63,103 nt of DNA from an uncultured Chromatiales bacterium. GTDB lineage: Bacteria > Pseudomonadota > Gammaproteobacteria > Poriferisulfidales > Poriferisulfidaceae. The stretch covers positions 1 to 63,103 of the forward strand of contig CAZRSJ010000005.1 of NCBI GenBank assembly GCA_964602805.1, read 5' to 3'. The notes beneath the pieces were generated by a model, which saw only the letters and a list, made by a program, of their open reading frames with translations, made no database searches and was not told where the DNA came from. A program made the translations under genes and the position numbers. Positions 33,177 to 53,229 of this stretch are shown piece by piece (position 1 is the stretch's first letter; every line of letters starts with the position of its first letter).

Positions 33177-33766
33177 GGCTGGATGCGGTCAATCCGCATT
33201 TCAAACCGCTCCAAGTCGTCGCGCAACCGGTCCACCTCGCGCACGAAGCGGTCAAGTTCAGAGGAACTCGGCAACAGGCCCGACTCCTCGTGCAAGTAGT
33301 CCCGGGCATTGCTCTCGGCTGCCTCACCGAAATTCCGGGCCACCTGCCGGCATTCCTCAAGGGTTCGCATCATCAGCCGGGCCGGCACGTCACCGACGGC
33401 GCGCGACAGCAGTTCCTCCCAGTCGATGTCGAGGGCGGCCAGGAAGTCGCGCAAATCCTGCGCGATCTCGCCCTCGCCCTCCAGATGGATTCCGTCGGCC
33501 CGGTCGCTGAGCACATACCGGACGAAGGCTGCCAGATGCCCGCGGATCGCAAGATCTGCTTCTTCTCCCGGAGATTCCAGAGTCAATTTCCCGTCGTCGA
33601 TGCGCAATCCGATGGAAGGCAGTGGCAGAAGTTCCAGCCGGATCGTGCGCTGGCCCATCGCCTGCAGGCGCTTCTGCGACTCTTCGTCAGTGCGCAGAGC
33701 CTGATTGACAAGAGTAGAAAGTGAAGCAAACATTGGGGACTGTATAAAATTATCCGCAAGATTCAT
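33173..33766 (-). CDS. ubiJ: ubiquinone biosynthesis accessory factor UbiJ (SCP2 domain)
   Basis: 197 aa. Position immediately upstream of ubiB and an SCP2-like N-terminal half (LVNQALRTDEESQKRLQAMGQRTIRLEL). Confidence 0.75.
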   Translation of the reverse strand: MNLADNFIQSPMFASLSTLVNQALRTDEESQKRLQAMGQRTIRLELLPLPSIGLRIDDGKLTLESPGEEADLAIRGHLAAFVRYVLSDRADGIHLEGEGEIAQDLRDFLAALDIDWEELLSRAVGDVPARLMMRTLEECRQVARNFGEAAESNARDYLHEESGLLPSSSELDRFVREVDRLRDDLERFEMRIDRIQP

Positions 33767-33779
33767 GATAATTCATTTA

Positions 33780-35200
33780 TATTCAGTATCTTATCAAATC
33801 TTTAGTAGATCAGTTTCCAGCATGGCATAATCCCCGCATGATCCGTTCGTCTGTCTATCGCCTGTATCCGGGCACCCTGCGCCGGGGACAGATGTTGTCT
33901 GGCATTGCCGGGGCGAACCGCTATGTCTGGAACTGGGCTGCCGCCAACAATCGTGATGCAATGAAAGCCTATAAGGAGGGGAAAGGCGAAAAACCTTCCC
34001 CGACTTTCTTCACCCTGGGCCCGGAATTCACGAAACTGCGTAACAGCGCAGGCCACGAATGGCTGAAAGAACTGCCGTTCACAGAGGTCCGCTACGTGCT
34101 GAAGCGATACGCGGACGCCATGAAGGAAGCAAGGAAGGGTGCGCGGGGCTTTCCGAGATTCCGACATCGCGAGGACGGGGATTCGTTCACGATTCCGCAG
34201 GATGTGCGGATTACGGATGGGAAACTCTACATCACCAGGGTGGGCTGGGTGCCAATCAGCCGCCGGGGTGGCGACCCGTGGGCTTACGGCAAAGCGAAGC
34301 AGGCCGTGGTGGTCAAGCACCCCAACGGGAAATGGTACGTCTCGGTGTTCTGGGAAGTCCCGGATGCGAAACCGGAGGACAACGGCAAGGCGGTGGGCGT
34401 GGACCTGGGCAAATGGAACGTGGCAACCACCGAACCGGAACAGATATTCATGCCGGATGTCTCCCGCCTTGAGATCCGACTGAAGCGGCATCAACGGAAG
34501 ATGCATCGGCGCAAACGTATGCTCCTGCTGGATACAGACGGGGAACCGAAACGAATCCGGCAAGGCAAAGCCATCAAGGTCAATTCGGGCCGACGCGAGA
34601 AGGAGCGAAAGATCGTAGCAAGATTGTCTCGCAGGATCGCAAACATCCGGGACAACTGGCGACATCATGTCAGTTGTGACCTGGCGAGTCGCTTCGGGAC
34701 AATCTGCGTGGAAGGCCTGAAGATCAAAAACATGATGAGGTCGGCCAAAGGCACGGTGGAGAAACCGGGCAAGAATGTCAAGGCGAAATCTGCCTTGAAC
34801 CGGGGAATTGCGGAAAGCGGCTGGGGCCGGTTGCGCTTCATGCTCGAGTACAAGGCACACCGGGTGGAGCAAGTCAATCCGGCGTACACGAGCCAGACCT
34901 GCCACCAATGCGGGCATGTGGCGGAGGCGAACCGTCGGCAAGAGAGATTCAAATGCGTATCCTGCGGATACGCGGGGAATGCGGACATCAATGCCGCGTT
35001 CAACATACTGGCGCTGGGGACTGGCGCGGCTGGACAGGGAGGGGCGTTCGCCTCTGTCAGGGCCGGTCCTTCGGGCGCGGTTCGGTCAAGCGACCCCGAT
35101 GATCTGTCAATGGATATGCAAGGTCTGCTTGCGGATTATTGTCTATAAGTCCCTTTCAGATTATAGATTGAGGATAGGCTGACCCGTATAATTGTCTAAA
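33780..35200 (+). mobile_element. IS200/IS605-family, TnpB-only (IS1341-like) element; ends not defined
   Basis: Single tnpB ORF with no tnpA (Y1 or serine) gene, flanked by short AT-rich segments. A 7-bp-stem hairpin tctataa(35142-35148)/ttataga(35161-35167) spans the stop codon. The boundaries given are approximate. Confidence 0.5.
33838..35148 (+). CDS. tnpB: RNA-guided endonuclease TnpB (OrfB_IS605 + zinc ribbon)
   Basis: 436 aa. N-terminal YRLYPG, RuvC-I GVDLGKWNVA, RuvC-II ICVEGLKIKNM, zinc ribbon CHQCGH...CVSCGY, RuvC-III NADINAAFNIL. Confidence 0.9.
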   Translation: MIRSSVYRLYPGTLRRGQMLSGIAGANRYVWNWAAANNRDAMKAYKEGKGEKPSPTFFTLGPEFTKLRNSAGHEWLKELPFTEVRYVLKRYADAMKEARKGARGFPRFRHREDGDSFTIPQDVRITDGKLYITRVGWVPISRRGGDPWAYGKAKQAVVVKHPNGKWYVSVFWEVPDAKPEDNGKAVGVDLGKWNVATTEPEQIFMPDVSRLEIRLKRHQRKMHRRKRMLLLDTDGEPKRIRQGKAIKVNSGRREKERKIVARLSRRIANIRDNWRHHVSCDLASRFGTICVEGLKIKNMMRSAKGTVEKPGKNVKAKSALNRGIAESGWGRLRFMLEYKAHRVEQVNPAYTSQTCHQCGHVAEANRRQERFKCVSCGYAGNADINAAFNILALGTGAAGQGGAFASVRAGPSGAVRSSDPDDLSMDMQGLLADYCL

Positions 35201-35202
35201 CA

Positions 35203-35982
35203 ATGTGCACGCACACGCGGCTGCTTTTTCTGGGGCTGCTGGCATCGCTCGGCGGTGCTGGCCAGGCGGCGGATTCGCCGTTCTCCTTGGGCTCGGATCC
35301 CGGGCTGCAGATCGCCGTACGACTGATTTCCGACAAGACCCCGGAGGAACCGTCAGCGGACGGCAGTATCGAGGAAGAAGGCGCGGAATCTCCGGAACAG
35401 GCGGAAGAAGGTGCGCCTTCCGCACAAACTCCCGGCATCCCGGCCTCACAAGAGGACCGCGTCGAAGATCAAGGCCTTTTGGAGGATCCGGAAGAAGGCC
35501 AACCGGCCGCAGGCCAGGAAACAGCCGGTGAAACCGAAGATCCCGGGGTCGAAGACGAACTCGAAAGGGAGCCGGAACTTGCGGAGCAGGCAAGTATCGA
35601 AGAAGGGCAAGAGAGGGAGCTTTCCCGAATCGAGGCCGTATTGAACCGCGTTGACCAGATCCTGCTGGACGCGGGGGTCCGGGCCCGCAAAGAGCGGGAA
35701 GGAAGGATCGACGGCGACGGGACAACAGAGGAAGACTTGCCGGATTGGGAGACACAGGGCGAAGGCGAAGGGGAAACTGCAGAGGAAGAGGCCGAACGCG
35801 GCGGAGTCGCCGAAGGCCAGGTTCCCGGCGATGTCCCGACCGGCAAGACGCGTCCGACTCACGGCTACGAGAAAGACGACGACATCGTGACCCGGCAGGT
35901 CTGTGAACTGGCGGAACGAGAGGAAGACCCCGAGGTCCGTAAACAGCTGGAGCAAAAATGCAAAAGCCTGAGAGACAGTTAG
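35203..35982 (+). CDS. secreted hyper-acidic low-complexity protein
   Basis: 259 aa. Signal peptide LLFLGLLASLGGAGQA, then long Glu/Asp/Gly/Pro-rich sequence. The C-terminal segment has two Cys. Confidence 0.6.
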   Translation: MCTHTRLLFLGLLASLGGAGQAADSPFSLGSDPGLQIAVRLISDKTPEEPSADGSIEEEGAESPEQAEEGAPSAQTPGIPASQEDRVEDQGLLEDPEEGQPAAGQETAGETEDPGVEDELEREPELAEQASIEEGQERELSRIEAVLNRVDQILLDAGVRARKEREGRIDGDGTTEEDLPDWETQGEGEGETAEEEAERGGVAEGQVPGDVPTGKTRPTHGYEKDDDIVTRQVCELAEREEDPEVRKQLEQKCKSLRDS

Positions 35983-37142
35983 CCCTGCTCGCCTTGCTGC
36001 TGGCCTTCGCCAGCGGATGCCAGACCGGCATGTCCGGCGTCTACGGGGGCCTGTTCGAAAAATCGTCGGAAGAGCCGGCTGTCGAGCCGGTGCCGGAAGA
36101 ATGGTATCTGGATGCCGGCATTGTCCGGTTCAAGGGGGAAGTCGACAAGAAAGAAGTAGCCGAGGGGGACGTGTTCCCCCAGGTGCGAAGAGCCGAAACC
36201 CTGTATTTTCCCCAGCAGTTGCGCCAGGCGATGCTACGCGGGGGCGGCTGGCGGCATGTGTGGGTGGTGCCGGAACGCGCCGTTCCGGACCTGCGCATCG
36301 AGGGCACGATCCTGAAATCGAACGGCTCCGAACTGGACTTGAAAATCCTCGCCATCGACTCGACCGGCGGGCAGTGGCTCGATCGCGTCTACCACCATGA
36401 ATTCAGCGAAACCGATTACGCCGGCGAAGATCGGGCTCGGCCGATGGAAGCCCTATTCGACCAGATTGCCAAGGACCTTTTGCTCGAACGTGACCGCAAG
36501 GGGGTAGCAGCCATGAAGGAAATCCGCGCCGTGGCGGAATTGCGGTTCGCGGAAGAGTTCGCACCACAGGCGTTCGAACGTTATGTCAAGGAACAAAAGG
36601 GCCGCACGCGCCTGATTTCCCTGCCGGCCGAAGAAGACACGTTGTACCAACTGGTCCTGCAAATCAAGGAACGCGACGACCTCTTCGTCGAGACCCTGCA
36701 GCAATACTCGGAGGGTTTTTCGGAAAAGATCGATGCCTCGTACCGAGACTGGGCACGACAGAGTTTCTACGAACGCCGTGCGCATGACGAGGGAGTTGCC
36801 GCCAGCGTAACACAGGGACTTCTGAGCGCTCTGGCCATCATCGGCGGAGTCGTGGTGGCGGCCGACTCGGGGTCTTCCCCAGAAGTCCGCCAGCTCGGCC
36901 AAGTGCTGGTGGGGGCCGGCGCTTACGGTGCCTATGATGCCTACCAAGACTACGAAGCAACGGAAATCCACGAGGCCGCGCTCAAGGAGCTCGGACAGTC
37001 GCTCGACTTGGAGGTGGAGCCCCAAGTCGTGCAAGTAGAAAACCAGACACGGACGCTTACCGGGTCGGTCGAAGACCAGTACCAGCAGTGGCACGAAATC
37101 CTGAACGAGATTTACCTGTCGGAACGTGGCGCCCTGAACTGA
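35958..37142 (+). CDS. lipoprotein of unknown function
   Basis: 394 aa. Lipobox LLLAFASGC. Overlaps the preceding gene by 25 nt. One internal hydrophobic stretch (GLLSALAIIGGVVVAA). Confidence 0.65.
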   Translation: MQKPERQLALLALLLAFASGCQTGMSGVYGGLFEKSSEEPAVEPVPEEWYLDAGIVRFKGEVDKKEVAEGDVFPQVRRAETLYFPQQLRQAMLRGGGWRHVWVVPERAVPDLRIEGTILKSNGSELDLKILAIDSTGGQWLDRVYHHEFSETDYAGEDRARPMEALFDQIAKDLLLERDRKGVAAMKEIRAVAELRFAEEFAPQAFERYVKEQKGRTRLISLPAEEDTLYQLVLQIKERDDLFVETLQQYSEGFSEKIDASYRDWARQSFYERRAHDEGVAASVTQGLLSALAIIGGVVVAADSGSSPEVRQLGQVLVGAGAYGAYDAYQDYEATEIHEAALKELGQSLDLEVEPQVVQVENQTRTLTGSVEDQYQQWHEILNEIYLSERGALN

Positions 37143-37867
37143 TTCCGGTCGCACTGGCGCTGGTGGCGGGACTGGCCGCAGGAACCGCCACGGCCGAGAG
37201 CCTCCAGGATCGGGCGCTTCGTGCCATGCTGGATTCGGATTGGGCCCGGGCGGTCGAGTTGTGGGCAGGGGTGGACGGGCAACGAGCCCGGGAATACCTT
37301 CAGCAGGCCCGGGCGGAACTCCAGTATCAGCGGACCCGGTCCCTGCTGAACGAGGCCCGTGTAGCCCGGCAGAAAGAAGACTGGGCCACGGCCGATACCG
37401 CCTACCTCAAGGCATTGGCCATCTCCCCCCATTTGAAGTCGGCGCACCAAGGCCGAGAGCAAGTCGCCCTGTACATCGAGGCATACCGGCAGCTGGACGC
37501 GTTGAAACTGCCGGAAGGCCTCTACGACAAGGTCATCCGAGCCCGGGCGAAAGAGTGGCTTGCCTTTGTCCGAGAGAAACAACTCGATGACCGAAAGATC
37601 AGCAAGGCCCGCACGGAGATTGTCGAGGCATTGAAGCTGGCGCAAATCCCGGTTTCCCTGATCCTGACTTCGGACAACCAGTCCGAGGTTGAAATTTACG
37701 GCGTCGGGAAACTCGGGCGGCTCGAACGCCAGACCCTGAAGTTGATCCCAGGTGACTACATCGTCGTTGCCAACCGGCCCGGATACCGAGATGCTCGGGC
37801 GACGCTGAAAGTGCGCCCCGGCAAGGCTCTTACCCTAGACATTCGATGCACGGAGTCGATCCGGTGA
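37088..37867 (+). CDS. exported helical-repeat protein with C-terminal PEGA-like domain
   Basis: 259 aa from GTG 37088 (start uncertain). Signal-like LIPVALALVAGLAAGTATA. C-terminal LILTSDNQSEVEIYG...GDYIVVANRPGYRDARATLKV. Confidence 0.6.
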   Translation: MARNPERDLPVGTWRPELIPVALALVAGLAAGTATAESLQDRALRAMLDSDWARAVELWAGVDGQRAREYLQQARAELQYQRTRSLLNEARVARQKEDWATADTAYLKALAISPHLKSAHQGREQVALYIEAYRQLDALKLPEGLYDKVIRARAKEWLAFVREKQLDDRKISKARTEIVEALKLAQIPVSLILTSDNQSEVEIYGVGKLGRLERQTLKLIPGDYIVVANRPGYRDARATLKVRPGKALTLDIRCTESIR

Positions 37868-39681
37868 TTCTTGAGCACGAGCCGATCCAGGCCAAGCCAT
37901 ATCGGTCGCCCAAGCAGGAAAGGCGCCGCAAGCGGCCCTCAGCACCCCGATTTCGTGGGGTAGGGCTGGCGATTCTGCTCCTGGCACTGATGACGGCAGG
38001 CGCCTGGTACGCCATGGAGCAGGCACAACTCATCAGCTTCGAGACTGACCCCGCAACCGCCACGGTGCGTCTCGAGAGCCCGCACATGATGGTGAACGGG
38101 CAAGCCTTGCTCTGGCGTGGCCAGCATATCGCGAATGTGGAAGCAGAAGGCCACTACCCTCGGCAGATCGAATTCCAGGCGGGTGGAGACGCGCCGCGCA
38201 CCGTGCAGGTCACTCTGGACCCCTTGCCGGGCAAACTCCGGGTTTCCACGACCCCTGAAACCGAAGGGGAAGTCCGAGTCGACGGCGAACGCGCCGGGAA
38301 GATCGGAGAAATACTGGAGGATATCTCCCCGGGCCAACATGTCGTACAGGTCAGCGTGGAGGGCTTCGAAATGCGCCAGCAAACGGTAGAGATCGAGGGA
38401 TACGGCCAATTGACCGAGATTGAGATTTCTCTCCAGAAGGTCGTAGAACCCGCCTTGCTGACGATTTCCAGTACCCCCGATACCGCGGACATATTGATCG
38501 ATGGCATCTGGCGGGGGCGGACCCCGAAGCGGGTCGCATTGACTCCAGATACCCAGGTGGAAGTTGCCTTGTTATTGCCCGGCCATACTCCAAACCGGCA
38601 GACCCTGAAATTGAAATCCGGCCGCCAAAACCATACGGTGACCCTGACACCGCGCCTCGGTACCCTTGAACTTTGGCCAACGCCGGCCAACGCGACGATT
38701 CGTATTGACGGGCAGGTGGAACTCCGGCGTCAGTTGCAGCTGACACAGCAAGCCCATACCGTGGAAGTTTCCGCACCAGGCTATGTGACGAATAAATACA
38801 CCGTGGTGCCCCACCCGGATACCCCAAAGCAACTTTTCGCCGTCTTGCAATCACAGGCGAAGGTCGAACACTCCCGGCGCCAAAAGCATGAACGGGATTT
38901 CGGGCTGATCTTCGTCGAGTTCCAGCCCCGCGGTTCGTTCGAGCTCACGACCACACGCCGCCGAATCCCGGTGCGCCTGACCCGACCGTTCGCGATCATG
39001 GACAAGGAAGTCACCAACGCCCTGTACCAGCGCTACCGAGCCGAACATGACTCCGGAGAAGTGTTCGGCAAGCGCCTGGATCGCCCGAGCCAGCCGGTAG
39101 TGCAGGTCAGTTGGGCGGATGCCGCACTGTTTGCGAACTGGATGAGCAAGCAGGCAGGGGTTGCGCCGTTCTACCGGGTACGCGACGGGCAAATCGTGGG
39201 ATTCGATGCGCAGGCGACCGGATACCGGTTGCCGAGTGAAGCCGAATGGGTCTGGTTGACCCGTTCCGGAAAGCGGTATGCCTGGGGTGACTTCATGCCG
39301 CCTCCAGATCGGTTCGGTAATCTAGCAGACGCTTCCGCTTCCGACATCGTGCAGCCGACACTGGAAGGATACAACGACGGGCATGCCGTCAGCGCCGACG
39401 TCGGAAGCTTCCCGCCTTCGGGCCAAGGGTTGTATGATTTGCCGGGCAACGTGGCGGAATGGATGCACGATGTGTTTCTCGACAAACTGCGGGTTTCGAC
39501 CCGTCCGGAGACAGAGCGAGTCAATCCGCTGGGCGAGGCCAGCGGTCGATACTACGTTATCCGGGGATTTAGCTGGCGCGATGGCGGGCGCAAGGAGTTG
39601 AGCCTGAACAACCGTCGCTACGACCGCGATCCCAAGGACGATGTGGGGTTCCGGCTGACTTACTACCTGGACAAGCCATGA
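37846..39681 (+). CDS. single-pass membrane protein with four PEGA-like repeats and a C-terminal FGE-sulfatase (SUMF1-fold) domain
   Basis: 611 aa. TM helix GVGLAILLLALMTAGAWYAM. PEGA-like repeats (for example LTISSTPDTADILIDGIWRGRTP). FGE-sulfatase motifs (MDKEVTNALYQRY, QPVVQVSWADAALFANWMS, YRLPSEAEWVW, NVAEWMHD, GFSWRD, GFRL). Confidence 0.8.
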   Translation: MHGVDPVILEHEPIQAKPYRSPKQERRRKRPSAPRFRGVGLAILLLALMTAGAWYAMEQAQLISFETDPATATVRLESPHMMVNGQALLWRGQHIANVEAEGHYPRQIEFQAGGDAPRTVQVTLDPLPGKLRVSTTPETEGEVRVDGERAGKIGEILEDISPGQHVVQVSVEGFEMRQQTVEIEGYGQLTEIEISLQKVVEPALLTISSTPDTADILIDGIWRGRTPKRVALTPDTQVEVALLLPGHTPNRQTLKLKSGRQNHTVTLTPRLGTLELWPTPANATIRIDGQVELRRQLQLTQQAHTVEVSAPGYVTNKYTVVPHPDTPKQLFAVLQSQAKVEHSRRQKHERDFGLIFVEFQPRGSFELTTTRRRIPVRLTRPFAIMDKEVTNALYQRYRAEHDSGEVFGKRLDRPSQPVVQVSWADAALFANWMSKQAGVAPFYRVRDGQIVGFDAQATGYRLPSEAEWVWLTRSGKRYAWGDFMPPPDRFGNLADASASDIVQPTLEGYNDGHAVSADVGSFPPSGQGLYDLPGNVAEWMHDVFLDKLRVSTRPETERVNPLGEASGRYYVIRGFSWRDGGRKELSLNNRRYDRDPKDDVGFRLTYYLDKP

Positions 39682-39896
39682 AACGACTTTGGTGGGTATC
39701 CTTGTATGCGATGGCGGCCTTGGCATGGGCCGAAGAGCCTCCTGCACCGCAAGCGGAAGAAGAGGATCACCAGATTATCGAAATCCTAACTGAAGAGGAT
39801 CTCAAGCAGAAAACCCCACAGATCACACTCAAGCAATTGACCCCAAAAGAAACCATTTCCCTCGACCAAGCCGTGGATATGCCCAGTGACATATAA
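39678..39896 (+). CDS. small secreted acidic protein
   Basis: 72 aa. Signal peptide MKRLWWVSLYAMAALAWA. ATGA overlap with the upstream gene and 11-nt overlap with the downstream gene. Confidence 0.55.
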   Translation: MKRLWWVSLYAMAALAWAEEPPAPQAEEEDHQIIEILTEEDLKQKTPQITLKQLTPKETISLDQAVDMPSDI

Positions 39897-40767
39897 ATTG
39901 AACAACCTGACCGGGCGCTGGCGTGAACACGAAGTGTTCTGGCAATTGCTGGCGTTGGCGGTGTCGTTCGTGCTGGTGCACGCGGCGTATGAACTGGTGG
40001 TGCGCCCAGTCGCCTACGAGGAGTTACAACGCCAGGCCGTTGCCGAGGAACAGGCTGAAATCGCATCGCCGACGCTTGGCGCGCGGATCGCCGTGGTCGT
40101 CAAGGACTACGAGCAGGAAGCCTGTTTTATCGCCCTGTTCTGGGCGCTCGCCATCATGTGGATGAAGCTGATGAAGCTGCGCTTCGCACGAAGGCTGCTG
40201 AGCCAGCGTGGCCGGCAAGACGAGGAGAGTTTCCTGGAAACCCGGGAAACCGATCTGGTCCTGCCTCAGGCGCACGACCGGGCACGCTTCACCGACGTGC
40301 GCGAGTACGTGCGAATGCAGGGCTATGGCGGTACCGTGCTCTATCGGGCTGCCGACGCCTGTCTGGATCGTTTCTTCACGACGCATTCCGTATCGGACGC
40401 CACTGCGGCCATGAAGGCCAGTTGCGAGATGGAGTCGGACCGGCAGGATACCGAACTGGCACTGGTGCGCTACCTGACCTGGGCCATCCCGTCGCTTGGA
40501 TTCATCGGCACGGTGCGCGGGATCGGCGCAGCCCTGGGGCAGGCCGAAGAAGCCACGCGCGGCAACATCGGGCCGGTGACGGAAAGCCTTGGCGTGGCAT
40601 TCAATTCAACGTTTGTCGCCCTGCTGATCAGCCTGTTCATCATGCTGCTGCTGCACAAACTGCAGGAAGCCCAGGAGTCGCTGGTACTGGATGCCCAGGA
40701 GCATTGCCAGCATCACCTGCTGCGTTACCTGCGGGAGCGGACGCGGACGGATGAGCCTTCTTCTTAG
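39886..40767 (+). CDS. MotA/TolQ/ExbB proton-channel family protein
   Basis: 293 aa (GTG start), four TM helices. Family motifs WAIPSLGFIGTVRGIGAAL and GVAFNSTFVALLISLFIMLLL. Confidence 0.8.
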   Translation: MTYKLNNLTGRWREHEVFWQLLALAVSFVLVHAAYELVVRPVAYEELQRQAVAEEQAEIASPTLGARIAVVVKDYEQEACFIALFWALAIMWMKLMKLRFARRLLSQRGRQDEESFLETRETDLVLPQAHDRARFTDVREYVRMQGYGGTVLYRAADACLDRFFTTHSVSDATAAMKASCEMESDRQDTELALVRYLTWAIPSLGFIGTVRGIGAALGQAEEATRGNIGPVTESLGVAFNSTFVALLISLFIMLLLHKLQEAQESLVLDAQEHCQHHLLRYLRERTRTDEPSS

Positions 40768-41662
40768 GATCGACAGCTACGCGCTGGCACAGCCCGACGG
40801 CACCGACTGGCGGGTCGAGTGGTGCTTGGCCCACCGGGACTCAAAAGACGGTTGGCGATTTGGTAAAGATGCCGGTGAACGGCTGCAGCCCCGACACACC
40901 GACAACGAAAACAACGAATATCTGGAAACACCGGGGATAGGGGAAAGCCAAGGCACGTCGAATATCGACCTTGCGTATTTGCAGTTGCGGGAATTCCTAC
41001 CGGAAGGGGAAGGCCCGATCGACCTTTCGGTAAGCGGAGGAATCGACCGATCGCGGCTCGAACGTCTGCTGGGCGTTCTGGAAGCCTTGAGCTACGCACC
41101 CCGAAGTGTATTCCCGACCGCACTGCTGGCGGCCCGGGACCTTGAACCCGGGCGCTACGGCATCATCGAGCTCGGGCGCAACCGCAGCTGGATCAGCGCC
41201 ATTGACGTTCAGCCGGGCCGTGCGCGACTGGAATCAGTCCAGGATTACGGGGATTTCGGCTTCTACCACCTCTTCACCCAATGGATGGAGAACGCGGCGG
41301 AGGCCTTCGCAGCCCAACACCGTTTCGACATACATCGCAACCTCGCGACAAACCGCGGGCAGCTGTTCGAACAAATGTGCCAAGGCTTCGCCGGGAAATC
41401 CGGACAGATCCGGCTCAATCTGGATTCCCGGCCCGTGACGCTGGACGAAAAGGTCTTTCAGGCCCGCTGGCCGAAGTCTTCTCTCGATACGGAGGGGCTG
41501 GAGCTCCTGCTGCTGCCTCCCCTGACGCGGGTATTGCCGCTGCCGGAACAGGGGTTGGGTCTCCCTCTTTGTGCCAACCCCACGCCCCAGGCCGTCTTCA
41601 ATCTGGAGGCCGCCGTGCCGGAAGACGGGCAAGCCCACCGTTGCGTGGCCCTTTCCTGCTGA
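40751..41662 (+). CDS. cytoplasmic hypothetical protein
   Basis: Internal Met MSLLLRIDSY of ORF 40691..41662. 303 aa, no signal or TM segment, no motif recognised. 17-nt overlap upstream and no gap downstream. Confidence 0.55.
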   Translation: MSLLLRIDSYALAQPDGTDWRVEWCLAHRDSKDGWRFGKDAGERLQPRHTDNENNEYLETPGIGESQGTSNIDLAYLQLREFLPEGEGPIDLSVSGGIDRSRLERLLGVLEALSYAPRSVFPTALLAARDLEPGRYGIIELGRNRSWISAIDVQPGRARLESVQDYGDFGFYHLFTQWMENAAEAFAAQHRFDIHRNLATNRGQLFEQMCQGFAGKSGQIRLNLDSRPVTLDEKVFQARWPKSSLDTEGLELLLLPPLTRVLPLPEQGLGLPLCANPTPQAVFNLEAAVPEDGQAHRCVALSC

Positions 41663-42706
41663 ATGTCCCGACGCCGCCGCAGCCGTTTCCTGAACCCGTT
41701 CGGCCTGGCTTTCCTGGATGTCATGTCCTGCGGACTGGGGGCCGCGGTCCTGCTGTTCCTGATCATCGACCACAATCTAACCGAACTGGCGCAAGCATCG
41801 GAGAGCGGCGAGGGAGATATGCAACTGCTGGAGCAATCGATCCAGGAACAGGAAGAACTGATTACCGAGCACCGCAGACAGATGCGTCAACTGCAACGCG
41901 AGTTGGAAAGCCTGGCGCAGCAGCGCGTGGCCGCCATCACCACCCAGGCCGAACTTCGCGCCCGCCAACCGAAAGCGTCTGACACGGCCCAACTGGAACA
42001 GGAACTGCGCAAGCGGAAGAAAAAGCTTCAGGAAGCGGAGAAAAGCAAGCAACTGAGAGCGAAAGAGGGAGAAGGGCAACGCCAGTACGTGGCGGGCTTC
42101 CGGGTCGAGGGCCGCCGCATCCTGATCCTGCTGGACCGCTCGGCCAGCATGCAGGACGAACGTATCGCCACGATCATCCGAAACAAGTTTCTCCCGGTGA
42201 AGTACCAGGTCGAGAGCTACAAGTGGCGCTGGGCGCGTTCCATCTTCGAATGGGTTCTCTCACACCTGCCGCAAGAGGCGCAATACCAAGTCTGGGGTTT
42301 CAGCACGACAGCGGCGCCGGCGCTGCCGAGGAGCGGATGGCTTCCGGCAAAAGACGGGAAGCGAATGGAAGAGGTGATTTCGGCCGTGCAGGGCTGGGTC
42401 CCTGCGGGAGGAACCCGACTTGATACGACCCTCAAGAAGATCGCCCAGATCAAGCCAAGGCCGGATGCTGTCTATCTGATTACGGACGGCCTGCCGACGC
42501 AGGGAAAATCCTGGTTCAAGAAAAACCGGGTCAGCCCTTCCCAGCGCATGGATTTTTTCCAAGAAGCAACGGGAGGCATTGCAGGCCCGCCTTTCAACAT
42601 CGTTCTGCTTCCACTTGAGGGCGACCCGGCAGCGGCCGGGGCCTACTGGGGATTTGCGATGAGGACGAACGGGCAATTCCTGGCCCCGGCGGAGGACTGG
42701 CCATGA
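41663..42706 (+). CDS. ExbD/TolR-like TM helix + coiled coil + VWA domain protein
   Basis: 347 aa. Arg-rich N-terminus, helix FGLAFLDVMSCGLGAAVLLFLII, roughly 110-aa coiled coil, VWA with MIDAS DRSAS and later GGTRLD / ITDG. Confidence 0.75.
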   Translation: MSRRRRSRFLNPFGLAFLDVMSCGLGAAVLLFLIIDHNLTELAQASESGEGDMQLLEQSIQEQEELITEHRRQMRQLQRELESLAQQRVAAITTQAELRARQPKASDTAQLEQELRKRKKKLQEAEKSKQLRAKEGEGQRQYVAGFRVEGRRILILLDRSASMQDERIATIIRNKFLPVKYQVESYKWRWARSIFEWVLSHLPQEAQYQVWGFSTTAAPALPRSGWLPAKDGKRMEEVISAVQGWVPAGGTRLDTTLKKIAQIKPRPDAVYLITDGLPTQGKSWFKKNRVSPSQRMDFFQEATGGIAGPPFNIVLLPLEGDPAAAGAYWGFAMRTNGQFLAPAEDWP

Positions 42707-43668
42707 GGCGCGTCCGCCGGCAAGCCGATAATCGTTTGTCGTTCCTCGACGTGGTCAGCTGTGGGTTCGGGGCCATGGTGCTGCTGATCCTGATCACTAA
42801 AAACACTGTGGGTGAGCCGGTCGAAGATCTTCGGGCCCAAATCGAAGCGCTGCAGGAACAACTCTCACGCATCATTCAGATCCGGGCAAGCCTGGCAACC
42901 GAACAACTTGCGGTGCAAACCCGAGTGCACGCCCAGCAGGAAAAACTGCAGGACGAACGGAAGGGCGTAGAGGAAGCGCGGCAGGCGAATGCTGGCGCCC
43001 AGGCGCAGGCCCTGATCGAAGCAGACCTGAAGACCGCGCTACAACGCCTCAATGAAGAAATGCGACGGCTGAATCTGACTGCATCCGAGCCGGATGTGAT
43101 TGGTGGCATCCCAGCCGACAGCGAGTACATCATTTTTATTGTCGACACGTCCGGCAGCATGAAACGGTTTGCCTGGAAGGCCGCCAGGCAACAGTTGGTG
43201 GCTCTGCTGGACGCTTATCCGAAAGTGCGCGGGCTCCAAGTGATGAACGACATGGGCACGTATATGTTCAGCGGCTACCGGGGGCGCTGGATTCCGGATA
43301 CGCCCGCACGGCGGAAGGTTCTCCTGCAGCGCTTTGACTCCTGGCATTCGTACAGCAATTCGAGCCCCGTCGAAGGCATTCTGGAAGCCATAAAGCGATT
43401 CCGCATGAAATCCGACAAGATCAGCCTGTACATCTTCGGCGACGAATACACTGGCGAGTCGATCCAGCGGGTCATCGACACGGTGGAGGATCTCAACTAC
43501 CGGGATGGGAAGAGACAGGTCCGCATTCATGCGGTCGGGTTCTTCACCCGGGCTCAGATCGAGAAGATCGATCCGAAATACGCCGATACCACTAGTCGGT
43601 TCGCGGCGCTAATGCGGGAGCTGACCCGGCGCAACGGAGGAACTTTTTTGGGGATCACGGTGGATTGA
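42703..43668 (+). CDS. ExbD/TolR-like TM helix + coiled coil + VWA domain protein (paralogue)
   Basis: 321 aa. MRRVRRQADNRLSFLDVVSCGFGAMVLLILI, coiled coil, VWA with MIDAS DTSGS. ATGA overlap with the previous gene. Confidence 0.75.
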   Translation: MRRVRRQADNRLSFLDVVSCGFGAMVLLILITKNTVGEPVEDLRAQIEALQEQLSRIIQIRASLATEQLAVQTRVHAQQEKLQDERKGVEEARQANAGAQAQALIEADLKTALQRLNEEMRRLNLTASEPDVIGGIPADSEYIIFIVDTSGSMKRFAWKAARQQLVALLDAYPKVRGLQVMNDMGTYMFSGYRGRWIPDTPARRKVLLQRFDSWHSYSNSSPVEGILEAIKRFRMKSDKISLYIFGDEYTGESIQRVIDTVEDLNYRDGKRQVRIHAVGFFTRAQIEKIDPKYADTTSRFAALMRELTRRNGGTFLGITVD

Positions 43669-43701
43669 GTCCACCCACAACAAAGCGGCAAGCTCCTTAT
43701 G

Positions 43702-44508
43702 CTACTGTCCTAACCGTCGGGTAATCGCCAACCGGAAAACATCCAATTCATGCTCAATCTTGTAGGGACAAGGCCTCCGGGGTCCATCCGGTCCGCAGCG
43801 ATTGTTTCCAGAATGATTCACGTGGTAATCGTTCCGCCCAAAATCCATACGAAGTCCCTCTAATCGCGCCACCCAGCCCCCGTTCAACGGGATTTCGGCC
43901 CCGAACCCGATGACCCAACCGGTTTCCGTCGAGCGATCATGAAAGGAGTCGTCAGGATCCACCGTCCTAGGTCGGTTCGGTCCAAAATCAACGTCGACGA
44001 CGAAGTTTTCAATCCGGGCACGCGCCAATCCTCCCGTAGCAAACACCGTCACTGAACCGAATGATTTCTCGATTCCTACACGGGCCGTAGTAATCCACTG
44101 AAACTCCACCACGGCCGTCTCGTCCAAAGCCCAAGGGCGGGGATCGAGCTGGTTAGTCTGGGCCTCTAAGTCACCGATGGTGCCTTCCAGTTCCAGTCGA
44201 ATCATGGTGCCACCCAGATTGAATTTCTTCCCTATCAGCACGCCACCAATGAAGCCGGCATCCTCGTAGCGAGTCACTAAGCCAGGACTGACCGGGTACG
44301 CAAAACCATTTGTATCAGTCAGCCGATTGTCGACTTCGGCAGATCCCACGAAAACACCCGCATAGGCTTCCGACCCATGGGGGGCCGACCAATTTTCCGC
44401 AGCAAAAACGGGGCCGCTTGCCACAACCATGAGAAGGACAAACATCCCAAGTGCCGTGCCACCCGGGGCATTATTGCCCCTGGACTCAAGCAAGAAAAAC
44501 GGTTTCAT
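43702..44508 (-). CDS. outer-membrane beta-barrel protein (OmpA-like/OMP_b-brl type)
   Basis: 268 aa with a signal peptide ending VFAAEN. Alternating-hydrophobicity strands (GFIGGVLIGKKF, WVIGFGAEIPL, WVARLEGLRMDFG) and a barrel-like C-terminal region. Confidence 0.65.
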   Translation of the reverse strand: MKPFFLLESRGNNAPGGTALGMFVLLMVVASGPVFAAENWSAPHGSEAYAGVFVGSAEVDNRLTDTNGFAYPVSPGLVTRYEDAGFIGGVLIGKKFNLGGTMIRLELEGTIGDLEAQTNQLDPRPWALDETAVVEFQWITTARVGIEKSFGSVTVFATGGLARARIENFVVDVDFGPNRPRTVDPDDSFHDRSTETGWVIGFGAEIPLNGGWVARLEGLRMDFGRNDYHVNHSGNNRCGPDGPRRPCPYKIEHELDVFRLAITRRLGQ

Positions 44509-44547
44509 TGCGGCCCCCTCGTGGCATCCCGCTCTGTTGACCAGGTT

Positions 44548-45279
44548 TCAGTCAATCCGCGTTCCGCGGTGGATAGCTACAATTCCGGCGCTTAGGTTGA
44601 AGTACTGGCAGGAAGCAAACCCTGCAGCGCGCATCATCTCGCGCAAGGTCCGTTGGTCCGGATGTACGGCGATGGATTCCGCCAGGTAGCGGTAGCTGTC
44701 GCGATCCCCGGCCACCAGTTCGCCTAGTTTCGGCACGGCCTGGTGCGTGTACGCATGGTAGAGCGGCTCCAGCCAAGCGGCCGGTTGGGAGAATTCGAGC
44801 ACGACCGCCAGTCCGCCGGGACGCAGCACCCGGTACATTTCTTGCAGGCAGGCCGAGGGATTCGTGAAATTGCGCAGGCCGAACCCGACCAGAACCCGGT
44901 CGAACGACTCCGACTCGAAAGGAAGCGCCATCGCATTGCCCTGTACGGCTGGAATATCCGTCAAACCTTCGTCCAGCAGCCGGTCCCGACCCTGAGTCAG
45001 CATGCCGTTGCTGAAGTCGCATAGGATCACCTGTCCTTCCGGGCCGACCTTCGAGCGAACCAGCCGGGCCAAGTCGCCGGTGCCACCAGCGAGATCCAGC
45101 ACACGTTGGCCCTCCCGGAGTTGCGCGAGCAGCGCAAACGTGCGTTTCCAGACCCGGTGCAGCCCGAACGACATCAGGTCGTTCATCAGGTCGTAGCGGA
45201 ACGCCACCGACTCGAACACCTCGTTTACAAGGCGGGTTTTCTCGTCCGGCTCAACCTCCCGGTAGCCAAAGCGCGCCAT
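44548..45279 (-). CDS. ubiE: ubiquinone/menaquinone C-methyltransferase UbiE
   Basis: 243 aa. VFESVAFRYDLMNDLMSFGLHRVWKR, SAM motif VLDLAGGTGDL, GFGLRN. Confidence 0.95.
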   Translation of the reverse strand: MARFGYREVEPDEKTRLVNEVFESVAFRYDLMNDLMSFGLHRVWKRTFALLAQLREGQRVLDLAGGTGDLARLVRSKVGPEGQVILCDFSNGMLTQGRDRLLDEGLTDIPAVQGNAMALPFESESFDRVLVGFGLRNFTNPSACLQEMYRVLRPGGLAVVLEFSQPAAWLEPLYHAYTHQAVPKLGELVAGDRDSYRYLAESIAVHPDQRTLREMMRAAGFASCQYFNLSAGIVAIHRGTRID

Positions 45280-47255: not shown

Positions 47256-48082
47256 AATTCCACGGAACCAGTATAGGCATACTCCGCACTGCCCCGCAAC
47301 ACCACCGGCTGGCCTTCGCCTTCCCAGTTCACCTGAAGGTCTCCGCCGGGAAGCGACACTACGACATCCTCCTGAAGCTCTCCCGCCAGCCGGCCTGCGA
47401 CTACTGCTGCGCAAGCCCCGGTACCGCAACCCGGAGTCTCGCCGACCCCGCGCTCCCATACCCGCAGCCGGATATGCCGAGGCGTGGAGATTTCCATGAA
47501 GCCCACATTGGCATGCCGGGGGAATCTCGGATGGGTCTCGATCCGGGGCCCCAGGATGTTCACCGGCGCACTGCCGATCGCATCGACGGTCAGCACCGCA
47601 TGGGGATTGCCCATGGAAACCACGGCAATCGAATATTCTTTTCCGCCCACCTCCAAGACGTAAGCGGGGTGGCGGCCTCGATTCGAAAAGGGAATTTCGT
47701 CCGGTTCCAGCCTCGGGGTGCCCATATTGACGCTCACCGAGCCGTCGTCGTGCAGTTGCAGGATGACTTCCCCCGAAGGCGCGCGCGCGCGCTGGTTCGA
47801 GGCATCTGCATACTTTCGATCGGCAGCATAGCGGCCCAAGCAGCGTGCGCCATTGCCGCATTGCTCCACTGACTGGCCGTCGGCATTGTAGATCCGGTAG
47901 GAAAAATGGATGTCAGGGTCCGGATCCGAGTCCAGGAACAACACCTGATCACACCCGACCCCGACGCGGCGGTCCGCGATTCTCCGCAATTGGGCTACCG
48001 TCAGGGAAACCTCACGGTCCCAAGCATCAAGGACGACGAAGTCGTTGCCCAGGCTGTGCATTTTGGTGAAGTCGAGCCGCAT
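47252..48082 (-). CDS. dapF: diaminopimelate epimerase
   Basis: 276 aa. MRLDFTKMHSLGNDFVVLD, active-site Cys motifs NADGQSVEQCGNGARC and GVGETPGCGTGACA. Confidence 0.95.
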   Translation of the reverse strand: MRLDFTKMHSLGNDFVVLDAWDREVSLTVAQLRRIADRRVGVGCDQVLFLDSDPDPDIHFSYRIYNADGQSVEQCGNGARCLGRYAADRKYADASNQRARAPSGEVILQLHDDGSVSVNMGTPRLEPDEIPFSNRGRHPAYVLEVGGKEYSIAVVSMGNPHAVLTVDAIGSAPVNILGPRIETHPRFPRHANVGFMEISTPRHIRLRVWERGVGETPGCGTGACAAVVAGRLAGELQEDVVVSLPGGDLQVNWEGEGQPVVLRGSAEYAYTGSVEL

Positions 48083-48165
48083 CGCTGCATTTTACTTTAG
48101 GGTTAGCACATGGACACGTGCACGGCACAAACATGGCCTAGATCGCGTCCGACCAATCGTATTTC

Positions 48166-48193
48166 TTGACAAATTAGCAATTCGGTTTACAAT
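48166..48193 (+). promoter_or_regulatory. sigma70-type promoter candidate for the XRE-ImmA gene
   Basis: TTGACA (48166-48171), 16-nt spacer, TACAAT (48188-48193). It lies 37 nt upstream of ATG 48231. Confidence 0.5.
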
Positions 48194-48230
48194 ATTAAAA
48201 TTCCTTTGAATTCTATAAACCGAGTTTAAT

Positions 48231-49761: not shown

Positions 49762-49782
49762 CGGATCCGGAATTGAAGATTC

Positions 49783-50583: not shown

Positions 50584-50594
50584 GGCGATCTACA

Positions 50595-52949: not shown

Positions 52950-53200
52950 TCGTTAGGAAAACATCTAAAGATGGCAAACGCACATTGTCCTTGACTACAG
53001 GATAACTCTGTACCATTCATAGCGGCTTTTCTTCGCGAAACTACCGGTTCGAAAAACTTGTGTGGGCTTTTTGTGTGGTCGCAATTCTTGGAAATGGGCA
53101 ACGACATAATGACAAAAATATTTACAAATGTCTAGGTGTGGTTGCCGCAAATTGGTACTCTAAAAGTTTAGAGTCCTAAAAATTTAGATCTGCTTTCGGT

Positions 53201-53229
53201 TTGCAAGGGTCACTGGATTTGGCTAGAAT
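53201..53229 (+). promoter_or_regulatory. sigma70-type promoter candidate for rplU-rpmA
   Basis: TTGCAA (53201-53206), 17-nt spacer, TAGAAT (53224-53229). It lies 30 nt upstream of the rplU ATG. Confidence 0.5.

Follow-up and report, generated by a model that had tools for sequence, protein, structure and literature searches.

The nine genes at 35203-43668 of the window (the whole stretch of 63,103 nucleotides analysed here) are best read as encoding one trans-envelope force transducer that is driven by the proton motive force (PMF) and works on an outer-membrane lipoprotein complex. We give this reading a probability of about 0.6. Its motor would be formed by a TolQ/ExbB-fold channel, G6, and two paralogous proteins, G8 and G9, that carry a transmembrane (TM) Asp and a VWA head (Table 1).

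In the window ORF list, nine ORFs occur at the coordinates given in an earlier note on this DNA, and all the junctions that it listed were reproduced. Consecutive ORFs overlap by 25 nt (G1/G2), 22 nt (G3/G4), 11 nt (G5/G6) and 17 nt (G6/G7), share a 4-nt ATGA (G4/G5 and G8/G9) or abut with a gap of 0 nt (G7/G8). The G2/G3 junction, absent from the earlier note, is an overlap of 55 nt if G3 starts at GTG 37088; this start is less certain and is the sole plausible one upstream of the G3 signal peptide. With nine same-strand ORFs and junction overlaps of 0-55 nt, the proposal of a single operon was borne out. As had also been proposed, the products span the envelope, with predicted locations in the cytoplasm, inner membrane, periplasm and outer membrane, and a domain scan of the window's nine genes agreed that no OmpA-like domain, TonB/TolA, MoxR or DUF58 is encoded.

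Table 1. Genes and sequence features of the operon; loci are those in which each gene or its family was found, with varying denominators drawn from the 80 loci that share the gene order
Feature	Position (nt)	Strand	Description	Loci
Operon	35203-43668	+	nine ORFs	80
G1	35203..35982	+	secreted, very acidic protein, 259 aa, pI 4.1, 69 D+E	48/52
G2	35958..37142	+	lipoprotein, 394 aa, lipobox LAFASGC	50/53
G3	37088..37867	+	exported helical (TPR-like) protein, C-terminal PEGA-like beta-sandwich, 259 aa	52/53
G4	37846..39681	+	single-pass inner-membrane protein, 611 aa, PEGA-like repeats and FGE-sulfatase fold	58/58
G5	39678..39896	+	small secreted acidic protein, 72 aa, signal peptide ...ALAWA/EE	74/76 (by C-terminal motif)
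G5 tail	39846-39893		KETISLDQAVDMPSDI	
G6	39886..40767	+	predicted TolQ/ExbB/MotA-family proton channel subunit, 293 aa, GTG start	68/70
G6 Thr209	40510-40512		pore-lining Thr	
G6 Thr242	40609-40611		pore-lining Thr	
G7	40751..41662	+	cytoplasmic, divergent Hsp70-NBD/actin-fold protein, 303 aa	71/71
G8	41663..42706	+	proposed axle subunit 1, 347 aa	74/74
G8 TM motif	41696-41770		LxFLDxMSCGxG with Asp19	
G8 MIDAS	42134-42148		D158-x-S160-x-S162	
G9	42703..43668	+	proposed axle subunit 2, 321 aa, full-length G8 paralogue	70/70
G9 TM motif	42730-42798		SFLDVxxCGFGA with Asp16	
G9 MIDAS	43144-43158		D148-x-S150-x-S152	

The gene order is repeated across Gammaproteobacteria, and the operon is widespread in the marine members. 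Comparison with three relatives gave dN/dS values of 0.05-0.26 for all nine genes (0.21-0.26 for G1, 0.08-0.16 for G2 and 0.10-0.18 for G5), indicating purifying selection. This selection and the recurrence of the same order in 80 loci together argue that the operon exceeds chance. The earlier note had staked its case on co-conservation, and the genes are indeed syntenic in these loci. The operon occupies one ubiJ/ubiE position in every close relative, including two with single-chromosome assemblies of 1.57-1.59 Mb. In most genomes the cluster has four further genes, absent from the sponge-symbiont clade of the window, and the clade is also devoid of an FHA-like domain in G7, of the G1 lipobox and of much of G3. 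The window copy is a streamlined sponge-symbiont version that has neither the FHA-like domain nor the accessory genes; the cluster of which it is a reduced form is larger and counts about 13 genes. An extra upstream TPR protein, present in other lineages, gave a near-threshold TonB_C-like match.

The channel subunit G6 has the TolQ/ExbB fold and two conserved pore threonines. It matches the Pfam family MotA_ExbB (PF01618) with 46.3 bits (cutoff 22.9), and four hydrophobic helices are expected from its hydropathy and the positive-inside rule. In Foldseek searches with an AF2 model (pLDDT 92, pTM 0.85), TolQ and ExbB were the best PDB matches (probability 1.0, TMt up to 0.64) and MotA/PomA matched more weakly. 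The earlier assignment to the MotA/TolQ/ExbB family was therefore correct but the label "MotA-like" was not, as the fold is nearest to TolQ/ExbB. Thr209 and Thr242 are 100% conserved in 80 sequences.

G8 and G9 are single-pass paralogues with an ExbD/TolR/MotB-type TM Asp, a long stalk and a MIDAS-bearing VWA head; the two families align over their full length (hhalign 99.7%, E 2.7e-25, 315 columns). In G8, an Arg-rich cytoplasmic tail is followed by the single TM helix with its invariant Asp19, a helical stalk of ~100 residues whose profile matches only long-helix proteins in the PDB, e.g. ATP synthase subunit b, and a VWA domain (VWA_2, 28.9 bits, Pfam cutoff 27); the C-terminal DWP is invariant. 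G9 has a single TM segment with invariant Asp16, a helical stalk and a divergent VWA domain that is sub-threshold in Pfam (19.8 bits, cutoff 23.8), 5 of 24 members of its family giving a match. The MIDAS DxSxS and a later Asp (D275 in G8, D247 in G9) are conserved in both families. The TM Asp of G8 and G9 and both pore threonines of G6 are 100% conserved in 72-82 sequences (82 for G8). No ExbD match was found across the whole operon in the Pfam scan, G8 and G9 included, no ExbD/TolR chain of the PDB was matched by the G8/G9 profile, and no ExbD/TolR gene was found near the operon; the axle assignment hence rests on the short TM motif. Thus, of the previously claimed ExbD-like VWA pair, the Asp helix, stalk, paralogy and intact MIDAS were confirmed, and the likeness to ExbD is confined to the TM motif.

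G7 had been described as a protein with no recognisable motif. This description is to be rejected: its profile matches Hsp70 NBDs in the PDB (E 3.7e-5), and an AF2 model of moderate confidence (pLDDT 58, pTM 0.60) retrieved only Hsp70 NBDs among the Foldseek top 50 (best E 1.6e-9), identifying a divergent Hsp70-NBD fold. The glycine-rich phosphate-2 loop is degenerate ('elqlhq' aligned to 'DLGGGT' of Hsp70), so that G7 is probably not an ATPase. The ATG at 40751 gives a length in agreement with homologues; orthologues outside the window clade reach 400-480 aa and end in an FHA-like domain (E 0.0036 to the EssC FHA, profile versus PDB), and the window protein is a truncated form.

The remaining products are predicted to be exported or exposed to the periplasm. 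G1 has a signal peptide and a conserved C-terminal domain homologous to Simiduia S_399. Elsewhere its family is mostly a lipoprotein with a Ser/Pro-rich linker, a lipobox being present in 41 of 57 members and in none of the window clade. The G2 family has a lipobox in 52 of 58 members; G2 has no Asp at +2, from which we infer outer-membrane targeting. A Gly/Ala-rich hydrophobic stretch at aa ~284-330 resembles a glycine zipper, and no relatives were found in Pfam or the PDB. G1 and G2 are assigned to outer-membrane lipoprotein families. G3, which has weak Pfam matches to PEGA (0.0033) and TPR_2 (0.015) and is homologous to S_484TPR (E 2e-16), a long form in which TPR is present, is a shortened version of a ~480-aa membrane-anchored TPR protein of other lineages. 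In G4, an Arg/Lys-rich cytoplasmic N-terminus and a TM segment (aa ~39-57) precede PEGA-like repeats (aa ~61-337; four by eye, of which two stretches pass alone; PEGA 1.9e-18) and a Pfam FGE-sulfatase domain (aa 376-604, E 5e-32). This domain contains no Cys (none after aa 345) and hence is non-catalytic as an FGE. In the G5 family the acidic C-terminal tail (...SFPVDI) is conserved, with the consensus F.PSEEISEDLSVSFPVDI-COOH. A small ORF ending in [FYM]PxDI-stop stands just upstream of the channel gene in nearly all loci scored, and 2.97 million codons, taken over all frames, contain just 81 instances of this motif.

In the mechanism that we propose, five G6 subunits would surround one G8-G9 heterodimer in a motor of the 5:2 type (5:1:1), a stoichiometry based on homology and on published AF3 models (PMC12204202). 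Proton flow via the Asp/Thr site would turn or cycle the G8-G9 axle and thereby move the two VWA heads, ~15 nm out in the periplasm. The metal site of the heads would grip an acidic ligand, whose identity is a guess; candidates are the acidic C-terminal tail of G5 or the acidic G1 and G2 of lipoprotein families. An assembly close to the outer membrane, comprising G4, G3 with its TPR and PEGA parts, and the lipoproteins, would receive the work. No co-conserved outer-membrane beta-barrel or peptidoglycan-binding component that might resist the force was found, a point against this reading. G7, with its FHA-like domain in most lineages, may act as a cytoplasmic scaffold or regulator and would probably dock on the cytoplasmic domain of the channel or on the Arg-rich G8 and G9 tails. 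As for the cellular role, energy-requiring outer-membrane housekeeping is the most probable one, e.g. tethering, remodelling or turnover of a lipoprotein complex.

A different, rather unlikely possibility is a machine for secretion, gliding or adhesion that resembles T9SS/Gld or Agl-Glt and in which the motor would drive a PorK-like G4 assembly to move or expose a surface adhesin or cargo, the VWA heads or the acidic G1 and G5 being the adhesive or exported parts. The secreted and acidic character of G1 and G5 is in line with it, and FHA-like cytoplasmic domains, such as that of long-form G7, are typical of secretion-system base plates. The earlier note, in stating that Gld partners are missing, overlooked that the best NCBIfam match of the G4 FGE domain is TIGR03525, GldK/PorK (1e-19). 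PorK has a non-catalytic, repurposed FGE fold, and its ring works with a PMF motor in T9SS (PMC12421860); Myxococcus gliding pairs VWA adhesins with TolQR-like motors (PMC9946355). However, with 71 bits the GldK match falls well short of the cutoff of 350, and G4 has a predicted inner-membrane anchor, unlike PorK, a lipoprotein of the outer membrane. Pfam and NCBIfam searches of the window and Simiduia products, several of which gave no hits, revealed no outer-membrane barrel, secretin or GldL/M/N match among the co-conserved genes. The VWA heads are moreover tied to the inner membrane by stalks of no more than ~100 residues. Most of the carriers are marine Gammaproteobacteria, planktonic or symbiotic, for which no gliding is known.

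It is clearly improbable that the operon encodes no motor, with static BatA/BatB-like VWA scaffolds and a TolQ-like structural or ion-leak partner, or that it is a decaying remnant of the 13-gene cluster. The missing ExbD match would fit static scaffolds, but the invariant TM Asp and pore threonines are hard to account for without ion coupling, and MoxR and DUF58, which belong to Bat-type BatA/BatB operons, are absent from the nine genes in the Pfam scan. Decay would fit the losses in the clade and an IS605-type TnpB that immediately precedes G1, and does so only in the window; yet all nine ORFs are intact and under purifying selection.

Zorya uses a MotAB-like 5:2 motor in immunity. The suggestion of a Zorya-like defence, in which such a motor would sense envelope perturbation on infection and trigger a response, can draw on this precedent, on a weak ZorA match of G6 (E 0.029, PADLOC) and on a low-GC island ~4.5 kb downstream that encodes a D12 methyltransferase and a protein with a DndB domain, but it is very improbable and went unsupported. 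None of the nine proteins had a significant PADLOC match, and searches of 72,556 plasmids and 50,697 phage genomes gave no G8 relatives, both of which speak against a role in defence. Pfam and NCBIfam revealed neither a nuclease nor another effector domain in the nine proteins. The gene order is rigid in all sampled loci, the operon is kept at one fixed housekeeping position in reduced 1.6-Mb symbiont genomes, and ubiE, xerC and other housekeeping genes separate it from the island. Immunity is not a likely role.

The earlier note stated that the operon matches no named system. The system as a whole is unnamed, but its core has been described: the "TPH-vWA" motor class, an in silico prediction of 2025 (Mol Biol Evol, PMC12204202), consists of a TolQ-like channel and a heterologous Asp-helix VWA pair with no tolR/exbD nearby, and AlphaFold 3 models place the Asp helices inside a TolQ-like pentamer, where Thr residues encircle the Asp. 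Compared by features, the G6-G8-G9 core fits every one of this class (seed, Idiomarina) and is therefore not new. What is new here is the fold of G7 and its FHA-like tail, the G5 tail, the Cys-free PorK/GldK-like G4, the G1 and G2 families and the four extra genes. The role proposed for the transducer would be analogous to that of Tol-Pal or of the PorLM-PorKN pair of T9SS.

The nine genes, here termed G1 to G9, lie on the + strand and form a chain in which each gene abuts or overlaps the next; from G1 to G9 the overlaps amount to 25, 55, 22, 4, 11, 17, 0 and 4 nt. Upon rechecking of the ORF coordinates, all the junctions named in the earlier note were found to be correct, and the G2/G3 junction, which it did not include, rests on a putative GTG start of G3. 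A consensus scan for promoters and terminators over 33700-44600 gave sites that were not above those of shuffled sequence, and none on the + strand within the operon. When compared with the orthologues of three relatives, all nine genes displayed dN/dS values of 0.05-0.26, including the 72-codon G5 (0.10-0.18). G1-G9 are nine real genes under selective retention. Hydropathy and N-terminal sequences supported the topology proposed earlier for their products: signal peptides are present in G1, G3 and G5, a lipobox in G2, and one TM segment following a basic tail in G4, G8 and G9, while G7 has neither a TM segment nor a signal peptide.

Coordinates and occurrence of the operon genes, of the additional genes found in other lineages and of neighbouring features in the window
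Feature	Position	Strand	Length and remarks	Loci
ubi flank, upstream of the operon	31632-33766	-		
TnpB, IS605 family	33838-35148	+		
G1	35203-35982	+	259 aa	
G2	35958-37142	+	394 aa	
G3	37088-37867	+	259 aa, GTG start	
G4	37846-39681	+	611 aa	
G5	39678-39896	+	72 aa	
G6	39886-40767	+	293 aa, GTG start	
G7	40751-41662	+	303 aa	
G8	41663-42706	+	347 aa	
G9	42703-43668	+	321 aa	
OMP_b-brl gene	43702-44508	-		
ubi flank, downstream of the operon	44548-45279	-		
HTH + M78 (IrrE-like) regulator	48231-49298		low-GC island	
D12-class N6-adenine DNA methyltransferase	49783-50583		low-GC island	
784-aa protein with DndB domain	50595-52949		low-GC island	
Extra gene: upstream secreted TPR protein with TonB_C-like C-terminus				32/47
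Extra gene: lipoprotein d222				56/66
Extra gene: lipoprotein d215				52/64
Extra gene: lipoprotein M48 peptidase				31/60

In the window and in five close relatives (L004-L008), the operon occupies one site, between ubiJ-ubiB and ubiE, and thereby splits ubiE, ubiJ and ubiB, which usually form one contiguous cluster. More distant genomes carry the operon cluster elsewhere, e.g. between murB and yebC-ruvCAB in Arenicella. A TnpB gene with Cas12f1-like TNB, OrfB_IS605 and HTH domains lies between ubiJ and G1, with 54 nt separating it from the G1 start. This gene is present at that position in the window only; as the closest relative L004 and the relatives L005-L008 do not carry it there, it is probably a recent insertion, and it may have displaced or replaced the operon promoter. 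On the other side, the convergent OMP_b-brl gene is found at the same site in 4/5 of the relatives; it was weighed as a candidate for the absent outer-membrane component and rejected because it is convergent and adjoins the cluster only in the Porisulfidus clade. Further downstream, a low-GC island at ~48000-53500 (GC 0.44-0.50 compared to ~0.60 elsewhere) could be a DNA-modification or defence module gained by horizontal transfer and unrelated to the operon.

Among the matches listed, the closest genomes were "Candidatus Porisulfidus" MAGs and unclassified gammaproteobacterial MAGs, and the best match was a sponge-derived Porisulfidus MAG with 96% identity in G8. Two relatives are single-chromosome assemblies of 1.57 and 1.59 Mb. 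A genome scan confirmed at least 592 stretches in species-representative genomes, a number that exceeds the number of genomes because both paralogues, G8 and G9, can match. When a G8 profile was searched against 1.84 billion representatives, 451 clusters at 50% identity were retrieved with E <= 1e-30 and 1312 with E <= 1e-10; members are named in databases "VWA domain-containing protein", "hypothetical protein" or "MotA/TolQ/ExbB proton channel family protein". Some MAGs carrying the cluster (L013, L030, L046, L050, L058 and L026) are titled Klebsiella pneumoniae, Klebsiella sp., Phenylobacterium sp. or Candidatus Sulfomarinibacter; these titles look like binning or naming errors, as the cluster proteins group with marine and freshwater Gammaproteobacteria.

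Synteny was analyzed in a sample of 80 loci from species-representative genomes, each gene being counted only where the flank was long enough. Orthologues in the same order were found for G1 in 48/52 loci, G2 in 50/53, G3 in 52/53, G4 in 58/58 and G7 in 71/71, and this neighbourhood search supported co-conservation of the channel gene G6 (68/70) with G8 (74/74) and G9 (70/70). Simiduia agarivorans and Arenicella chitinivorans possess orthologues of all nine genes in the same order. Four additional conserved genes are present in most genomes (see Table), giving a 9-13-gene architecture. In Simiduia, the TPR protein (2471-3754 of locus L001) has a TonB_C match at its C-terminus with 23.6 bits, against a cutoff of 24.6 (E 7e-5), which hints at a TonB/TolA-like module contacting the outer membrane in the full system. 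None of the four extra genes was found in the Porisulfidus clade (0/7), including the window, which has no TPR protein. In this clade, G3 and G4 are also shortened, G1 has no lipobox and G7 no FHA-like domain. Because the extra genes, the G1 lipobox and the FHA-like domain are all missing from the clade, the copy in the window is best regarded as a streamlined version. Other variations were observed: in two loci (L057 and L081) the cluster is rearranged, the channel gene (~12120-12135) following G9, downstream of both VWA genes, and not preceding G7, and no G5-type ORF precedes it; in another (L041), a ~3-kb insertion (~4526-7434) separates the G4 and G5 orthologues in an otherwise intact cluster and holds a DNA methyltransferase-like ORF with a DPPY motif.

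The proposal that G6 encodes a MotA/TolQ/ExbB-like channel was borne out. G6 matched MotA_ExbB (PF01618) in Pfam with 46.3 bits, above the cutoff of 22.9 (E 4.3e-12), and its AF2 model (pLDDT 92, pTM 0.85) gave TolQ and ExbB chains as best matches in the PDB (probability 1.0, TMt 0.55-0.64), MotA and PomA being weaker. Two threonines in the last two helices, T209 (GTVRGI) and T242 (FNST), are 100% conserved in 80 orthologues; we take them to be equivalent to ExbB T148 and T181, which form the Thr ring of ExbB/TolQ. Hydropathy and the positive-inside rule suggest four membrane helices.

G8 and G9 share 22-24% identity, and the hhalign alignment of their family profiles runs over the full length (99.7%, E 2.7e-25, 315 columns); the heterologous pair is present in 70/70 loci. 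Both proteins have an Arg-rich tail followed by a single N-terminal TM helix with the motif (S/A)FLDV(M/V)xCGxGA, then a helical stalk of ~100 residues and a VWA domain with DxSxS and a later Asp. Conservation was measured on 72-82 sequences. The Asp of FLDV(M/V), D19 in G8 and D16 in G9, is 100% conserved, and the motif resembles the (I/L)DV(M/L) that ExbD and TolR have in E. coli. In the putative MIDAS, D158, S160, S162 and D275 of G8 are conserved at 98-100%, with a Thr in the GGT loop of the window protein, and D148, S150, S152 and D247 of G9 at 100%; G8 terminates in an invariant DWP. The VWA assignment relies in Pfam on VWA_2 for G8 (28.9 bits, cutoff 27) and on a VWA match below threshold for G9. 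The two had been described as VWA-tipped ExbD-like proteins: the Asp helix, the coiled coil and the conserved DxSxS stand, but the ExbD affiliation does not. Neither protein matched ExbD/TolR (PF02472) in Pfam at E <= 0.1, and the G8 profile retrieved from the PDB long-helix proteins alone, e.g. ATP synthase subunit b, and no ExbD, TolR or VWA chains. As neither Pfam nor the PDB links them to ExbD or TolR, G8 and G9 are not members of the ExbD family. The likeness, as far as sequence comparison tells, is limited to the Asp-bearing TM helix, the periplasmic part being predicted as a coiled coil plus VWA domain. Pfam found no ExbD, TolR or MotB gene in the operon.

The other products were analyzed in the same manner. 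G4 has, as anticipated, a single N-terminal TM anchor, PEGA repeats and an FGE-sulfatase fold: Pfam gave FGE-sulfatase at 5e-32 and PEGA at 1.9e-18, with two PEGA repeats significant alone and four visible by eye (aa ~61-337); there is no lipobox. A catalytic FGE requires a cysteine pair in the FGE-sulfatase domain. Since G4 has no cysteine after residue 345, it is not a catalytic formylglycine-generating enzyme. The best NCBIfam match of the FGE domain is PorK/GldK (TIGR03525, E 1e-19), at 71 bits against an equivalog cutoff of 350 and confined to the C-terminal 190 residues; the claim that the operon has no Gld partners has to be amended to that extent. From these sequence features, G4 appears to be a repurposed FGE fold, as is PorK of the T9SS (PMC12421860).

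The orthologues of G5 were missed by BLAST and were identified by their C-terminal tail, for which the family consensus is F.PSEEISEDLSVSFPVDI-COOH. A small signal-peptide ORF ending in [FYM]PxDI-stop lies directly upstream of the channel gene in 74/76 loci, and [FYM]PxDI-stop occurs 81 times in 2.97 million codons taken in all frames. In most genomes, G1, G2, d222 and d215 are lipoproteins that have no Asp at +2, from which targeting to the outer membrane is deduced. The G2 family profile found no relative in the PDB. A conserved Gly/Ala-rich hydrophobic segment of G2 (aa ~284-330, window 36807-36947; GGxxAIxGGIxA...AGAxxxKSG) resembles, in our estimation, the glycine-zipper hairpins of SlyB-type outer-membrane lipoproteins.

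G7, in which no motif had been recognised initially, proved to be related to Hsp70 nucleotide-binding domains. The family profile matched an Hsp70 NBD in the PDB (E 3.7e-5), and an AF2 model of moderate quality (pLDDT 58, pTM 0.60), built from a shallow alignment of 26 close relatives, returned only Hsp70 NBDs among the top 50 Foldseek matches (best E 1.6e-9); in Pfam, the G7 family matched no family, HSP70 included. Profile and model combined, G7 is predicted to adopt a divergent, two-lobed Hsp70-NBD (ASKHA) fold. The phosphate-2 loop DLGGGT of Hsp70 aligns with DLQLHQ in the family consensus and with ELGRNR in the window, and as the loop is replaced, G7 probably represents a pseudo-ATPase. 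Orthologues outside the Porisulfidus clade reach 400-480 aa by virtue of an extra C-terminal domain, whose match to the FHA domains of EssC is weak (E 0.0036) and to KIF13B marginal (E 0.064).

The operon encodes a TolQ/ExbB-fold channel with conserved Thr residues and paired Asp-helix VWA/MIDAS proteins, the pair being strictly co-conserved with the other seven genes, and has no ExbD. We propose that a G6 pentamer encircles a G8-G9 heterodimer and that proton flow would cause rotation or cycling of this axle. A stalk of ~100 residues, at 1.5 Å per residue if fully helical, would place the heads ~15 nm into the periplasm, where the MIDAS sites may bind an acidic ligand; the leading candidate is the conserved acidic tail of G5, and the acidic G1 and G2 are alternatives. 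The load could be a complex that G4, G3 and the lipoproteins form. G7 may act as a cytoplasmic scaffold or regulator, by analogy with PilM, which binds the N-terminus of PilN, and with the FHA-like domains that secretion-system base plates have on the cytoplasmic side. The model is weakest where the cellular role is concerned. A housekeeping task that consumes energy at the outer membrane is favoured because the operon is chromosomal, absent from the 72,556 plasmids and 50,697 phage genomes searched, rigid in gene order and under purifying selection in 1.6-Mb symbiont genomes. In its complete form, the proposal is a new functional class of PMF-driven 5:2-type trans-envelope nanomachine with 9-13 components, to be placed beside flagellar Mot, Ton, Tol, Agl/Gld and Zorya, in which two VWA/MIDAS 'hands' at the end of the rotating axle cyclically grip the G5 acidic tail or outer-membrane lipoproteins, a pseudo-Hsp70/FHA-like protein gates the motor from the cytoplasm, a PorK-like FGE-fold scaffold is there to work against, and the task performed at the outer membrane falls outside Tol and Ton. 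We hold this composite reading tentatively, with a probability of about 0.35.

Other explanations were weighed against it. A role in secretion or gliding similar to that of T9SS or Agl is possible given the PorK-like domain of G4 and the FHA-like domain of long-form G7, even though no outer-membrane conduit and no Gld or Glt component is co-conserved with the operon. Phage defence of the Zorya type, an option raised in the earlier note, is unlikely: PADLOC returned nothing significant for the nine proteins, the only match being ZorA at E 0.029 on G6, with no ZorB, ZorC or ZorD, and tblastn of G8 gave no match on 72,556 plasmids or 50,697 phage genomes. Neither a static, non-motor role, at odds with the invariant Asp and Thr residues, nor gene decay in a symbiont, at odds with the dN/dS values of 0.05-0.26, fits the data.

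The Gram-negative outer membrane has no energy source of its own, and to our knowledge few routes deliver energy to it: Ton, Tol, flagellar stators, Agl/Gld and T9SS, and Zorya. The operon is widespread and is retained even in sponge symbionts with 1.6-Mb genomes. It would combine a motor axle that directly bears predicted metal-dependent binding domains with partners that have no counterpart in known systems, namely a pseudo-Hsp70, a PorK-like FGE fold and a conserved-tail peptide. Once worked out, its function would give the 5:2 motor family a new output mode and could reveal a new envelope-maintenance process in abundant marine Gammaproteobacteria. Direct testing is feasible in culturable carriers, i.e. 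Simiduia agarivorans, Arenicella chitinivorans, Kineobactrum sediminis and Pseudohongiella acticola.

Among known systems, the Bat/MoxR-VWA operons are set apart by MoxR and DUF58, found neither in the nine products, in agreement with the initial reading, nor in the extended Simiduia cluster. Zorya likewise puts a MotA/ExbB-type pentamer (here predicted) and an Asp-bearing dimer to non-flagellar use, but the operon has no ZorA tail, ZorB peptidoglycan-binding domain or ZorC/D effectors and is not mobile. In the Agl-Glt machinery of Myxococcus, the VWA/MIDAS protein CglB is coupled in function to a motor of the TolQR type (PMC9946355); however, this lipoprotein is an adhesin of the outer membrane and not an axle, AglRQS has ordinary subunits of the TolR type, and the operon contains no Glt homologues. 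The T9SS PorKLMN/GldKLMN complexes also encode a PMF inner-membrane motor together with a non-catalytic FGE-fold periplasmic protein (PMC12421860). In contrast, neither PorL/GldL nor PorM/GldM is related in sequence to G6, G8 or G9. G4 has its anchor in the inner membrane and carries PEGA repeats, unlike PorK, a lipoprotein of the outer membrane that assembles into a ring with PorN. PorN, Sov and PorV are absent from the operon, which occurs in Gammaproteobacteria, while T9SS belongs to the Bacteroidota.

Ton and Tol-Pal (ExbB-ExbD-TonB and TolQ-TolR-TolA) share with the operon the TolQ/ExbB fold and Thr of G6, the Asp of the axle TM helix within a (L/I)DV(M/L)-type motif, and the presumed logic by which inner-membrane PMF is converted into work at the outer membrane. 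The differences are that the operon has no ExbD/TolR periplasmic domain, Pal or TolB, that none of the nine genes in the window encodes a third subunit of the TonB/TolA kind, that the predicted axle is a heterodimer itself bearing the output domain (VWA), and that G6 apparently has four hydrophobic helices and not three. The SHLS-type helix is absent from the TPH-vWA class (PMC12204202).

TPH-vWA/TolQ-like motors were predicted in 'Origin and Evolution of Bacterial Periplasmic Force Transducers' (Mol Biol Evol 2025; section 8, Fig. 4c-d; PMC12204202), the only relevant paper retrieved by a literature search for the operon's domain combination. As described there with Idiomarina loihiensis as the seed, TPH-vWA proteins are present in Proteobacteria and Verrucomicrobia, "predominantly in heterologous pairs". 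Their trans-pore helix is of the TolR/ExbD type and bears a conserved Asp, which AF3 models place within a ring of conserved Thr from a TolQ-like pentamer (PMC12204202). The operon similarly has a tolQ-like gene without adjacent tolR, exbD or motB (G6 in 68/70 loci), a membrane-tethered VWA pair, the Asp helix, the channel Thr and a Proteobacterial host. By that description, its core displays every feature of the class and probably belongs to it. The published account, in main text and supplements, treats only the three motor genes, and 'sulfatase', 'FGE' and 'PEGA' are absent from its main text. Beyond it are the Hsp70-like/FHA gene situated between those for the channel and the VWA proteins, a PEGA-FGE protein of the PorK kind, the small secreted peptide that bears a C-terminal motif, the lipoproteins, an M48 peptidase, and the reduced form with nine genes. 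The earlier note had described a distinct and unnamed ion-driven machine; the system is indeed distinct and unnamed, but its three-gene core had been predicted in print in 2025, and the novelty lies in the conserved set of 9-13 genes of which the motor is part.
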